The position numbers were made by a program, and so were the translations under genes. A stretch of 64,000 nucleotides of DNA from an uncultured Solirubrobacterales bacterium. Its GTDB lineage: Bacteria; Actinomycetota; Thermoleophilia; Solirubrobacterales; 70-9. The stretch spans positions 227,545 to 291,544 of the forward strand of contig CAWIJE010000004.1 of the NCBI GenBank assembly GCA_963836415.1, read 5' to 3'. Shown here one piece after another: positions 35,148 through 38,705 of the stretch (position 1 is the first letter of the stretch; each line of letters begins with the position of its first letter). The notes below the pieces were generated by a model. The model searched no databases. It worked only from the letters and a program-made list of their open reading frames with translations, and had not been told where the DNA came from.

Positions 35148-36301
35148 TCAATCGTCGAGGCGCAGCGCGATCTCCAGCTCCGGCGCGACGTCCTTCAGCG
35201 GCCGCCCGTAGAGATCCTCGACCGCGCGCAGTCGGTTCGTCACCGTGCGGCGGTCGACCCCGAGCACGGCCGCGGTCGAGGAGACGTTGCGCTCGGCGGC
35301 GAAGTAGGCGCGCAGGGTCTCCCGTCCCGTCGCGCCGCCGTCCCGCGCGCCTTCGAGCGGCTCCAGGTAGAGCTTGCGCAACGAAGAAATGACCAGGTCG
35401 TCGCGGATAATCGACGCCAGCAGCGCGACGTCGGCGTAGCGGACGACGGCCTCCCCCTGCGCTCGGCGATCGGCAGCGCCGCCTTTGCCTGGCGGTGGCT
35501 GAAGCGCCAGCCCGCGAGGCCCTCGCCGGGCTCGCCGATCGTCGCCACCACCTGATTCGGTGAGATCTCGGCGAGCGCCGCCACCGCCTGCTCGGCGCCG
35601 AGGCGGTTGCGGCCGCCGAGCCAGCAGGCCCAGGTCAGCTCTTCCTCGCGCCGGACCGCGAGCAGGCGCCGGTCGAGTCGCGCCGCCAGCGCCCGCATCA
35701 CCTCCGGTGCCTCGTCGCCCTTGACCATCAGGGCGAGGTGGCGGCCGTCGAGGTCGTAGCCGAGCTCCGAGGAATCGACGAGCTCGCCGGCGAGCAGGCG
35801 CTTGACGCACTCGCGGCGGCGCTCCGCGGCGCTCCGCGGCCGGCTCGTCACCTCGGCCGCGTGCTCGGCACTGACCGCGGCGAGCAGCCGGTCGCCGATC
35901 GTCGCCTGCGCCGCGAGCAGCGGCCGCAGGGCCGAGCTCGGGACCTCGGCCCGCTCGGCCTCTTCGACCAGGAAGTCGCCGAACAGGGTGTTGCCGGCGA
36001 AGTAGCGGCGCAGGACGGTGTCGAGGGGGACGCCGTCGCGGGCGTCGAGACGAGCCTGGGCGATCAGCTCCGCCGGCACCGCCGGGGCCCGGCGCTCGCC
36101 GTCCTCCAGCACTGTGAGCCGGTAGTCGACGGCGGCGGCCAGGGCTACGTGGAGGCCCTCGAGATAAGCGGGGTCGGCGACGTCGTGCGGATCGGAGATC
36201 GCGTAGACGCGGGTCATGACCGCGGCTTGGATCTCGGGCAGACGCTCGCGCAGGCGCCTCGCGAGCGCGGCTCCGGCGTCATCCAAGCCACGCTTGCTCA
36301 C
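35148..36301 (-). pseudogene. PucR-family transcriptional regulator; frameshift at a C5/G5 run near 35457
   Basis: The N-terminal 280 aa (ORF 35240..36301) form a PucR-like ligand domain. The C-terminal HTH_30, TLRAYFAAERNVSSTAAVLGVDRRTVTNRLRAVEDLYGRPL, lies in a different frame (ORF 35148..35810). The junction is at ctccccctg. Confidence 0.6.
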
Positions 36302-36356
36302 GCGCTCACCTTAGCGCCGCGTCGCCCCGCCGAGGCGGGAGGACGAAGCCCCGGGT

Positions 36357-38705
36357 TCAAGCGCCGACGTAGGCGGCGAGGTGCTCGCCGGTCACCGTGG
36401 AGCGGCCGGCGACGAGGTCGGCCGGGGTGCCCTCGAAGACGATCCTGCCGCCGTCGTGGCCGGCGCCGGGGCCGAGGTCGATGATCCAGTCGGCGTGCGC
36501 CATCACCGCCTGGTGGTGCTCGATCACGATCACCGACTTGCCCGAGTCGACCAGGCGGTCGAGCAGACCCAGAAGCTGCTCGACGTCGGCCAGGTGGAGG
36601 CCGGAGGTCGGCTCGTCGAGGACGTAGACGCCGCCCTTCTCGGCCATCTGGGTGACCAGCTTGAGCCGCTGGCGCTCGCCGCCGGAGAGCGTCGTCAGGG
36701 GCTGGCCGAGGCTGAGGTAGCCGAGGCCGACGTCGCTCATCCGCTCGAGGATCCGGTGCGCCGCCGGGGTCTCGGCCTTGCCCTTGCCGAAGAACTCCTC
36801 CGCCTCGGCGGCCGGCATCGCCAGCACCTCGGCGATGTCCCTGCCGCCGAACTTCAGCTCGAGGACCTCGGCCAGGAAGCGCTTGCCCTCGCAGTCCTCG
36901 CAGGTGGTGGCGACGCCGGCCATCATCGCCAGGTCGGTGTAGACGACGCCGGCGCCGTTGCAGGTCGGGCAGGCGCCGTCCGAGTTGGCGCTGAAGAGGC
37001 CCGGTTTGACCCCGTTGGCCTTGGCGAACGCCTTGCGGATCGGGTCGAGCAGGCCGCTGTAGGTGGCCGGGTTGCTGCGCCGCGAGCCGCGGATCGGCGC
37101 CTGGTCGACCGTCACCACGCCCTCGCGCCCGGAGACCGAGCCGCGGATCAGCGAGCTCTTGCCCGAGCCGGCCACGCCGGTGAGGACGACGAGGACGCCG
37201 AGCGGGATGTCGAGGTCGACGCTCTGGAGGTTGTGGAGGTCGGCGCCGCGCACCTCGAGCGCCCCCTCGGGCTCTCGCACCTCGGGCTTCAGCTCGGCCC
37301 GGTCGTCGAGGTGGCGGCCGGTGATCGTGCCGCTCTTGCGCAGCCCGGCGACGGTGCCCTCGAAGACCACCTCGCCGCCAGCCGTCCCGGCCTCCGGGCC
37401 GAGGTCGACGACGCGATCGGCGATCGCGATCGTCTCCGGCTTGTGCTCGACCACGAGCACCGTGTTGCCCTTGTCGCGCAGCCGCAGCAGCAGCTCGTTC
37501 ATGCTCTCGATGTCGTGCGGGTGCAGGCCGACCGTCGGCTCGTCGAAGACGTAGGTGACGTCGGTCAACGAGGAGCCGAGCTGGCGGACCATCTTGACCC
37601 GCTGTGCCTCGCCGCCGGAGAGGGTGCCCGAGCCGCGCTCGAGCGAGAGGTAGCCGAGCCCGATCTCGACGAACGACTCGAGGCTCTGCTCGAGCGACTC
37701 GAGCAGCGGCGCCACCGAGGGCTGCTCGAGGCCGCCGACCCACCGGGCGAGGTCGGTGACCTGCATCGCGCAGGCGTCGGCGATGCTGATCCCCTCGATC
37801 TTCGAGGAGCGGGCGCCCTCGCTGAGCCGGGTGCCCTCGCACTCGGGACAGGCGGCGAAGGTGACCGCGCCGTCGACGAAGGCGCGGATGTGGGGCTGCA
37901 TCGCCTCCCTGTCCTTGGAGAGCATCGAGCGCTCGACCCGCGGGATTAGCCCTTCGTAGGTCATGTTGATGCCCTCGATCTTCATCCGCTCGGGCTCGTG
38001 GTGAAGGAAGGCCTCGCGTTCCTTCTTCGTGTACTTGCCGATCGGCTTGTCGGGGTCGACCAGCCCGGACGAGGAGTAGAGCCGGTAGTTCCAACCGCCG
38101 GCCTTGTAGCCGGGGATCGTCAGCGCGCCCTCGTTCAGCGATTTGCCCTCGTCGTAGAGCCGGCTCAGATCGATGTCGGAGACCGTGCCCCGTCCCTCGC
38201 AGCGCGTGCACATGCCGCCGGTCCGGTTGAAGCTCGCCTTCACCGTCTTGCGTTTGCCGCGTTCGATCGTGATCCCGCCGCTGGCCTTGACCGAGGGCAC
38301 GTTGAAGGCGAAGGCGTTGGGGGAGCCGATGTGCGGCTTGCCGAGGCGGCTGAAGAGGATGCGCAGCATCGCGTTGGCATCGGTGGCGGTGCCGACCGTG
38401 GAGCGGGTGTCGGCTCCCATCCTCTGCTGGTCGACGATGATCGCCGTGGTCAGGCCGTCGAGGACGTCGACCTCGGGCCGCGCCTGGTTCGGCATGAAGC
38501 CCTGGACGAAGGCGCTGTAGGTCTCGTTGATCAGCCGCTGTGACTCGGCCGCGATCGTGCTGAAGACCAGCGAGCTCTTTCCCGATCCGGAGATCCCGGT
38601 GAACGCCGTCAGGCGGCGCTTCGGGATCTCGACGCTGACGTCCTTGAGGTTGTTGACGCGGGCGCCGTGGACCCGGATCAGGTCATGGCTGTCGGCGGTG
38701 TGCAT
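36357..38705 (-). CDS. class II UvrA paralogue (UvrA-like ABC ATPase lacking the UvrB-binding domain)
   Basis: Two ABC modules (GISGSGKSSLVF... and GVAGSGKSSLI...; LSGGEAQR and LSGGERQR) and zinc-finger cysteines (CTRCEGRG, CPECEG, CPTCNGAG, CEDCEGK). At 782 aa it is shorter than the ~950-aa canonical UvrA and lacks the UvrB-interaction insert. Confidence 0.85.
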   Translation of the reverse strand: MHTADSHDLIRVHGARVNNLKDVSVEIPKRRLTAFTGISGSGKSSLVFSTIAAESQRLINETYSAFVQGFMPNQARPEVDVLDGLTTAIIVDQQRMGADTRSTVGTATDANAMLRILFSRLGKPHIGSPNAFAFNVPSVKASGGITIERGKRKTVKASFNRTGGMCTRCEGRGTVSDIDLSRLYDEGKSLNEGALTIPGYKAGGWNYRLYSSSGLVDPDKPIGKYTKKEREAFLHHEPERMKIEGINMTYEGLIPRVERSMLSKDREAMQPHIRAFVDGAVTFAACPECEGTRLSEGARSSKIEGISIADACAMQVTDLARWVGGLEQPSVAPLLESLEQSLESFVEIGLGYLSLERGSGTLSGGEAQRVKMVRQLGSSLTDVTYVFDEPTVGLHPHDIESMNELLLRLRDKGNTVLVVEHKPETIAIADRVVDLGPEAGTAGGEVVFEGTVAGLRKSGTITGRHLDDRAELKPEVREPEGALEVRGADLHNLQSVDLDIPLGVLVVLTGVAGSGKSSLIRGSVSGREGVVTVDQAPIRGSRRSNPATYSGLLDPIRKAFAKANGVKPGLFSANSDGACPTCNGAGVVYTDLAMMAGVATTCEDCEGKRFLAEVLELKFGGRDIAEVLAMPAAEAEEFFGKGKAETPAAHRILERMSDVGLGYLSLGQPLTTLSGGERQRLKLVTQMAEKGGVYVLDEPTSGLHLADVEQLLGLLDRLVDSGKSVIVIEHHQAVMAHADWIIDLGPGAGHDGGRIVFEGTPADLVAGRSTVTGEHLAAYVGA

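Follow-up and report, generated by a model that had tools for sequence, protein, structure and literature searches.

What does a UvrA-like protein do in a genome region where it has no excision-repair partners beside it? This question is raised by a gene in a 64-kb stretch of contig CAWIJE010000004.1, from an uncultured Solirubrobacterales bacterium; the whole of this stretch, with a GC content of ~71%, is referred to below as the window. We show that the gene is intact and encodes a UvrA-like DNA-scanning ATPase, and that its product (hereafter the query protein) is a new, uncharacterised member of the known Ecm16 clade of class IIa UvrA proteins. As to function, our analysis leads us to lean towards an ATP-driven clearing of DNA-bound intercalators that would be independent of nucleotide excision repair (NER) and would provide intrinsic rather than producer resistance.

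The open reading frame (ORF) is clearly coding, since its third-position GC content is very high (Table 1). The query protein contains two complete tandem ATP-binding cassette (ABC) ATPase modules, with Walker A motifs at residues 37 (GISGSGKS) and 510 (GVAGSGKS), LSGGE signatures at residues 362 and 673, and Walker B motifs at residues 385 (YVFDEP) and 693 (VYVLDEP); in addition, it is matched by the Pfam ABC_tran model (PF00005). Eight cysteines, C166/C169/C286/C289 and C579/C582/C602/C605, align with the ligands of zinc modules 2 and 3 of Ecm16, which are C176/C179/C296/C299 and C589/C592/C612/C615 (PMC10192343), and all eight are invariant in 82 of 82 clade sequences. The protein thus has the arrangement that defines class IIa, in which zinc modules 2 and 3 and the insertion domain are all kept. 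A 100%-identical protein (P0001) is already present in NCBI/ENA.

We next aligned the query pairwise with E. coli UvrA, taking the reference sequence from NC_000913.3. The two proteins are 39% identical. Where the E. coli protein has ~135 residues (approximately residues 120–255) that include the CPxH and CPxC ligands of zinc module 1, the query has only a short linker of ~33 residues. The Pfam UvrA_inter model (PF17760) gave no match on the query, while E. coli UvrA, serving as the positive control, scored 132 bits. Because the UvrB-binding domain is missing, the query protein cannot recruit UvrB. Its best NCBIfam matches are UvrA models, though both fall under their equivalog cut-offs: TIGR00630 scores 672 against a cut-off of 729.8, and NF001503 scores 661 against 1147. 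In neither its domain content nor its equivalog scores, therefore, does the query resemble a canonical class I UvrA. A tblastn search with E. coli UvrA revealed no second UvrA-like gene in the window; the sole signal elsewhere was, as expected, a weak ABC-ATPase match in a transporter gene at ~13.9–14.2 kb.

The best solved relative in a search of PDB sequences was chain A of 7SH1, which matches along the full length with 1304 bits; for class I UvrAs and the D. radiodurans UvrA2 the same search gave 470–540 bits. PDB 7SH1 is Ecm16, the echinomycin self-resistance protein of Streptomyces lasalocidi (PMC10192343). We rebuilt the Ecm16 sequence from the printed 7SH1 alignment, allowing for a 20-residue tag, and found it to be 74.9% identical to the query over 777 aligned residues, with 78% identity outside the insertion domain and 56% within it. 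Of the ten basic residues in the groove of Ecm16, the query conserves nine, and the adenine-stacking histidine is kept as well (H491, corresponding to H501 of Ecm16). The published identities to Ecm16 are 87.8% for TrsM, 79.8% for Swb15 and 71.2% for TioU, followed by 52.1% for AcmrC, 51.2% for DrrC, 37.8% for CmrX and 34.8% for MtrX (PMC10192343 Table 1). Since the value for the query lies inside the 71–88% range, the protein would by sequence fall with the bis-intercalator (quinomycin-type) group and not with the DrrC or MtrX types, the latter being placed by their published identities to Ecm16 rather than by alignment with the query. A search of 50%-representative sequences was dominated by duplicated UvrA proteins of 1600–1900 residues. 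Taken together, these results bear out the structural part of a preliminary description of this DNA, which had claimed a 782-residue protein with both ABC modules and the zinc-finger cysteines, lacking the UvrB-binding insert; they also narrow its assignment to the class II UvrAs of the Ecm16 and DrrC types, the likeness being to Ecm16 itself.

The insertion domain of the query corresponds to native residues 180–295 of Ecm16. Its identity to the clade consensus is 74%, and its median identity to 80 relatives (described below) is 66%; the Pfam model PF17755 matches it weakly, at 17.5 bits, which is below the cut-off. In Ecm16 this domain is the specificity determinant: it decides whether echinomycin-bound DNA stimulates the ATPase, and a DrrC insertion domain, 32% identical, was non-functional when swapped into Ecm16 (PMC10192343). 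Given that the domain sets drug specificity in Ecm16 and is only 56% identical here, the drug on which the query would act, and indeed any drug role, is something that we infer.

To place the query in its family we used a word-indexed protein search, which returned 8000 matches below 1e-50. Each of the top 120 has at least 81% identity to the query, their sources being Streptomyces, Actinomadura, Kitasatospora, Streptacidiphilus and Solirubrobacterales. Scanning with one genome per species yielded at least 600 loci, 80 of which were kept for comparisons of identity, synteny and motifs. These 80 span Streptomyces, Micromonospora, Nonomuraea, Amycolatopsis, Pseudonocardia, Nocardia, Trebonia, Solirubrobacterales, Thermoleophilaceae and Acidimicrobiia, and the proteins that they encode are 78–82% identical to the query and 73–79% identical to Ecm16, with a median of 83% among themselves; the nearest metagenomic relatives are 85–94% identical to the query. 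Database labels for the clade read ‘ATP-binding cassette domain-containing protein’ or ‘excinuclease ABC subunit UvrA’. With E. coli UvrA as the root, a neighbour-joining tree has a star-like shape in which the taxa are intermixed: the query pairs with a protein from a metagenome-assembled genome (MAG), P0004, and Ecm16 forms the longest branch, at the base of the clade. As this is a distance tree without support values, we use it only for the membership of the query in the general clade, and read from it no special closeness to Ecm16. The query is, in short, an unexceptional representative of an actinobacterial family that is very common.

Is the gene part of an antibiotic biosynthetic cluster, as the gene for Ecm16 is? 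We annotated nearly all ORFs across the 64 kb with Pfam and found no non-ribosomal peptide synthetase (NRPS), polyketide synthase (PKS), tailoring-enzyme or exporter set; a motif scan of the window for NRPS/PKS core motifs was likewise negative. With no biosynthetic cluster in the 64 kb, we rejected producer self-resistance as the role of the gene. The related loci behave similarly, with NRPS motifs lying within 8 kb at only 1–2 of the 80. These findings agree with a survey of 3820 actinobacterial genomes in which ~6000 UvrA and UvrA-like proteins had only 642 neighbouring clusters (PMC10413001), so that most uvrA-like genes lie outside clusters. One sampled locus, from Micromonospora sp. NPDC093277 (L018), is the only one to combine NRPS adenylation-domain motifs with ORFs of more than 1100 residues beside the UvrA-like gene (1492–5718 and 14129–17647), and may represent a bis-intercalator cluster; its insertion domain is no nearer to that of Ecm16 than average.

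What does recur beside the genes of this clade is a small cassette. Directly upstream and on the same strand, 39 of the 80 loci have a VOC/glyoxalase-family gene of the bleomycin/mitomycin-resistance superfamily (120–170 residues, median gap ~155 bp), 26 have upstream an AraC-type protein made up of a helix–turn–helix domain only (146–160 residues), and 21 have both, in the arrangement AraC-VOC-UvrA2. Two VOC sub-families are involved, at 29 and 11 loci respectively. As judged from pre-computed Pfam labels, the AraC, VOC and UvrA2 genes of locus L082 (1390–4661) are packed 10–20 bp apart on one strand, and a protein of 922 residues (P0066) is a fusion of UvrA2 with a VOC/glyoxalase domain. We found no published description of this arrangement in the literature searched. 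A further locus with the cassette (L003, NZ_JBQCHP010000183.1), labelled as a Dyella sp. MAG, carries an 80%-identical UvrA2 copy in DNA of 63% GC; its assignment to a gammaproteobacterium points either to a gene transferred horizontally out of Actinomycetota or to a mistake in binning. In the window there is no AraC match, and no cassette-type VOC gene directly upstream of the UvrA-like gene. A glyoxalase gene is present nearby (Table 1), but an opposite-strand gene separates it from the UvrA-like gene, and its product shares only 32% identity with the cassette VOCs, against 64% among those VOCs themselves. We therefore rejected it as the cassette partner; it is a paralogue, not an orthologue, of the usual cassette VOC.

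The function that we propose is modelled on Ecm16. Expression of Ecm16 alone renders E. coli resistant to echinomycin, and this resistance persists in strains lacking uvrA, uvrB, uvrC or uvrD and requires ATPase activity; Ecm16 does not complement an E. coli uvrA mutant after UV (PMC9328131). The protein binds echinomycin-bound DNA ~5 times tighter than free DNA, and its ATPase is stimulated 16-fold, by echinomycin-bound DNA only (PMC10192343). Expressed in Brevibacillus, it protects from echinomycin, thiocoraline, quinaldopeptin and sandramycin, and gives no protection from doxorubicin, daunorubicin, actinomycin D, mitomycin C or cisplatin (PMC10192343). Since the query is 75% identical to Ecm16, with the same architecture and intact motifs, it most likely handles drug-distorted DNA in the way that Ecm16 does, and from this likeness we infer DNA binding, drug sensing, a resistance phenotype and the kind of drug. 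By analogy, a dimer would bind double-stranded DNA in its basic groove, the two insertion domains would sense the helix distortion caused by non-covalently bound intercalating or bis-intercalating natural products, and ATP hydrolysis would then clear the drug–DNA complex without UvrB, UvrC or UvrD. Because there is no biosynthetic cluster nearby, the protection would be intrinsic, directed at DNA-binding antibiotics made by neighbours, rather than producer self-immunity. The VOC partner found in relatives fits such a role, since the VOC superfamily includes binders of DNA-targeting drugs, such as AziN, BlmA and MRD (PMC7145581). Neither a LexA box nor a RecA-NDp motif is present in the divergent intergenic region upstream of the gene, and neither is enriched across the 80 loci. 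The missing motifs also fit a drug-clearing role, and on the same grounds we rejected membership in the SOS or PafBC regulon.

Several points weigh against intercalator clearing. The insertion domain of the query has diverged, its likeness to that of Ecm16 ranking only 68th of 81, and the AraC-VOC cassette is missing from the window. Ecm16, as the longest and basal branch of the tree, may be a specialised offshoot that is not typical of the clade. A conserved housekeeping function on DNA would be equally compatible with identities of 78–82% that persist through several orders and at least three classes in differing genomic contexts, and the repair phenotypes of class IIa UvrAs in Deinococcus, Xanthomonas and Pseudomonas are small or unclear (PMC9328131). 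Finally, the literature searched contained no resistance assay for clade members from outside clusters.

Part of this evidence suits a different role, in which the protein is an accessory DNA-damage sensor that feeds non-UvrBC repair, tolerance or mutagenesis, the drug resistance of Ecm16 then being a derived specialisation. The lesions would be endogenous or environmental, and a role of this kind has been proposed for the UvrA2 proteins of D. radiodurans, Xanthomonas and P. putida. Such a sensor would account for a clade found in at least 600 genomes in variable contexts, conserved from Streptomyces to Acidimicrobiia and rarely near NRPS motifs, for the position of Ecm16 as the most divergent branch, and for the location of the window gene among housekeeping genes that include lon, ppx, eno and mfd; minor UV phenotypes reported for class IIa UvrAs point the same way (PMC9328131). 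However, no LexA or RecA-NDp motif lies upstream of the gene or is enriched across the 80 loci, the recurrent partners are a VOC protein of drug-binding type and an AraC-type regulator rather than a nuclease or helicase, the UvrB-binding domain is absent, and Ecm16 did not rescue the uvrA mutant after UV (PMC9328131). We regard a damage sensor as possible, though on the doubtful side.

Two further alternatives can be given much less weight. High identity to Ecm16 and to cluster-linked relatives, together with the use of uvrA-like genes as markers for clusters of DNA-binding antibiotics (PMC10413001), might suggest that the gene confers immunity on a producer, as do Ecm16, TrsM, TioU and DrrC from within their clusters. 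This is contradicted within ±25 kb by the content of the window, and the small number of clusters around the ~6000 surveyed genes (PMC10413001) speaks against it too, so that we consider producer immunity very unlikely. Even less probable, to the point of being negligible, is that the query is the canonical or only UvrA of the organism and acts in UvrABC excision repair. The names given to its relatives and its top NCBIfam matches favour this identity, but the protein has neither a UvrB-binding domain nor zinc module 1, scores below both equivalog cut-offs and is far closer to Ecm16 (75%) than to E. coli UvrA (39%), and Ecm16 itself cannot stand in for UvrA in E. coli (PMC9328131).

The recurrent cassette allows a broader and more tentative proposal. 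Ecm16, TrsM, Swb15 and TioU could be recruits from a larger conserved Actinomycetota clade, spread through Actinomycetes, Thermoleophilia and Acidimicrobiia, the usual form of which would be an AraC-VOC-UvrA2 defence module; we consider this conceivable rather than probable. In such a module the AraC-type protein would serve as sensor and regulator, UvrA2 would strip the drug from DNA, and the VOC protein would capture or inactivate it. The window gene may then be a stripped-down copy of the module. Were this true, a large share of soil actinomycetes would possess an intrinsic defence, undescribed so far and acting in two steps, against DNA-intercalating natural products, and the recurrent arrangement makes this a concrete, testable hypothesis. 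By itself the window gene matters little: it is typical of its family, and the mechanism of that family is being elucidated with Ecm16. Its wider interest is that Ecm16-like proteins are not confined to antibiotic producers: the window copy and hundreds of others in ordinary chromosomal contexts match Ecm16 as closely as accepted cluster-linked resistance proteins do. If these proteins are active, soil actinomycetes would commonly have intrinsic resistance to bis-intercalators, and a uvrA-like gene would be a poor marker for intercalator clusters unless clade and context are considered.

The immediate neighbourhood of the gene (Table 1) had been used in the preliminary description as an argument for function: the gene was said to be flanked by a PucR-type regulator and a Cys-repeat protein gene, and not to lie in a uvrABC context. 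The second statement holds, as no uvrB or uvrC was seen among the Pfam-scanned ORFs and the only repair gene seen there, mfd, is 22 kb away. The two flanking genes are also present as described, but they are weak evidence. In none of the 80 related loci does the PucR or the Cys-repeat gene of the window stand beside the UvrA-like gene; only in the near relative L084 does the PucR gene adjoin it, and there the Cys-repeat gene is absent. We therefore rejected, for the family, a function inferred from these flanks. The proposal that the gene has a drug-resistance or damage-tolerance role rather than one in NER is supported by the likeness to Ecm16 and by the missing UvrB-binding domain, the flanks being uninformative.

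L084 is a metagenomic contig with ~90% nucleotide identity to the window, and its UvrA-like protein is 94% identical to the query. It is colinear with the window across ppx, RibD_C, the UvrA-like gene and the beginning of the PucR gene, and lacks 2.3 kb holding the glyoxalase and Cys-repeat genes (window 38711–41028 versus L084:4071–4180, between RibD_C and the UvrA-like gene). The stretch between RibD_C and the UvrA-like gene is thus a variable patch inside an otherwise colinear region. The ppx–RibD_C stretch also differs in gene content between the window and L084. In the next relative, L081 (85%), the gene context is unrelated.

The Cys-repeat protein has a signal-peptide-like N-terminus, and is predicted to be secreted, with ~9 evenly spaced SCP(T/S)xxxCxAV (SCPxxxxCxAV) repeats; its C-terminal tail is rich in arginine. 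Searches of Pfam, NCBIfam and PDB sequences gave no match for it. Its gene is a neighbour only, and there is no sign of a functional link to the UvrA-like gene. An antisense ORF in the mechanical ORF list (38706..40034) is out of phase with codon-position GC. The divergent intergenic region must hold the promoter of the UvrA-like gene; we found no sigma-70-like site in it. The PucR-type gene is split over two frames, with a Pfam GGDEF_2 match in 35240..36301 and HTH_30 in 35148..35810; the frame break, at ~35450–35473, adjoins a five-base G/C run.

Table 1. Coordinates of the UvrA-like gene, its parts and other features of the window.
Feature	Position	Strand	Remarks
Class IIa UvrA-like gene, Ecm16 clade	36357..38705	-	ORF, ATG start; 782 aa; third-position GC 0.97
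Short linker replacing UvrB-binding domain and zinc module 1	38232..38327	-	aa 127-158; ~33 residues (aa 127-159) in E. coli UvrA alignment
Insertion domain	37851..38198	-	aa 170-285; bracketed by zinc module 2 cysteines C166/C169 and C286/C289
PucR-type regulator gene, one frameshift	35148..36301	-	55 bp downstream of UvrA-like gene
Divergent intergenic region	38706..38804	.	99 bp; must hold promoter of UvrA-like gene
Cys-repeat protein gene	38805..40274	+	Divergent, upstream of UvrA-like gene; 489 aa
VOC/glyoxalase-bleomycin-resistance family gene	40300..40713	-	PF00903, 80.5 bits
mfd, transcription-repair coupling factor	60549..63998	-	Runs off right end of window
Bacterial type IB topoisomerase gene	2725-4032	-	Topoisom_I and Top1B_N_bact; left end

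To the right of the UvrA-like gene the window holds the glyoxalase gene, genes for two RibD_C proteins, ppx, and genes for a thiamine pyrophosphate (TPP) enzyme and an extracytoplasmic function (ECF) sigma factor, then deoC, a nuclease gene, enolase (eno) and mfd. On the left are lon, an NhaA-DsbA fusion, a CHAD protein, an aldehyde dehydrogenase and an EncFtn/encapsulin pair, and further left a ZnuABC-type transporter, a carboxyltransferase, a major facilitator superfamily (MFS) transporter and the type IB topoisomerase. A cluster of frame breaks affects conserved genes immediately downstream of the UvrA-like gene, at 29820–35480. Three frames are needed to read the aldehyde dehydrogenase (Pfam Aldedh positions 7–157, 180–328 and 330–461), the cargo-targeting peptide of EncFtn (SLGIGSLRG) is in a different frame from the EncFtn body, and the encapsulin gene is spread over at least two frames. 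The lon, mfd, nhaA-dsbA and UvrA-like genes are intact, and among the breaks only that in the PucR gene adjoins a five-base homopolymer; the breaks are either assembly indels or real pseudogenes. An 844-residue ORF at 16800–19334 on the minus strand differs in composition from its surroundings (GC 0.65, strong AT skew); it has only weak CarboxypepD_reg and SdrD_B-like matches, which suggests a surface or secreted repeat protein. Another minus-strand ORF, at 14490–16244, joins an ABC-3 permease domain (residues 11–263) to a ZnuA solute-binding domain (residues 303–571) and has another ABC-3 gene and a gene for an ABC ATPase as neighbours; either a genuine fusion or a frame artefact may lie behind it.

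Collectively, these results allow the query to be compared with UvrA proteins of known function. With the class I UvrAs of E. coli, M. tuberculosis and G. stearothermophilus it shares the tandem ABC ATPase fold, zinc modules 2 and 3 and the DNA-binding groove; unlike them, it has neither the ~135-residue UvrB-binding domain nor zinc module 1, and additionally lacks a 25-residue segment of the second nucleotide-binding domain. The UvrA2 of D. radiodurans (PDB 2VF7/2VF8) has the same class IIa architecture, and its solved structure resembles that of Ecm16, but it scores only 470 bits with the query, compared with 1304 for Ecm16. DrrC, AcmrC, MtrX and CmrX are likewise class II proteins that lack the UvrB-binding domain and protect against DNA-binding drugs; they are far more distant, at 35–52% identity to Ecm16 (PMC10192343 Table 1). 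The closest match among characterised proteins is to Ecm16, TrsM, Swb15 and TioU, with which the query shares two nucleotide-binding domains, the insertion domain, zinc modules 2 and 3 and the missing UvrB-binding domain, keeping all ATPase motifs and nine of the ten basic groove residues. These proteins are encoded in quinomycin (NRPS) clusters, whereas the query gene is in no cluster and belongs to a cluster-independent genomic clade relative to which Ecm16 is a long basal branch. Unlike the cassette-bearing members of that clade, the query gene has no AraC and VOC partners and is followed instead by a PucR-type gene. In length and motifs, the query is the same as the cluster-independent, Ecm16-like proteins of Actinobacteria at large.

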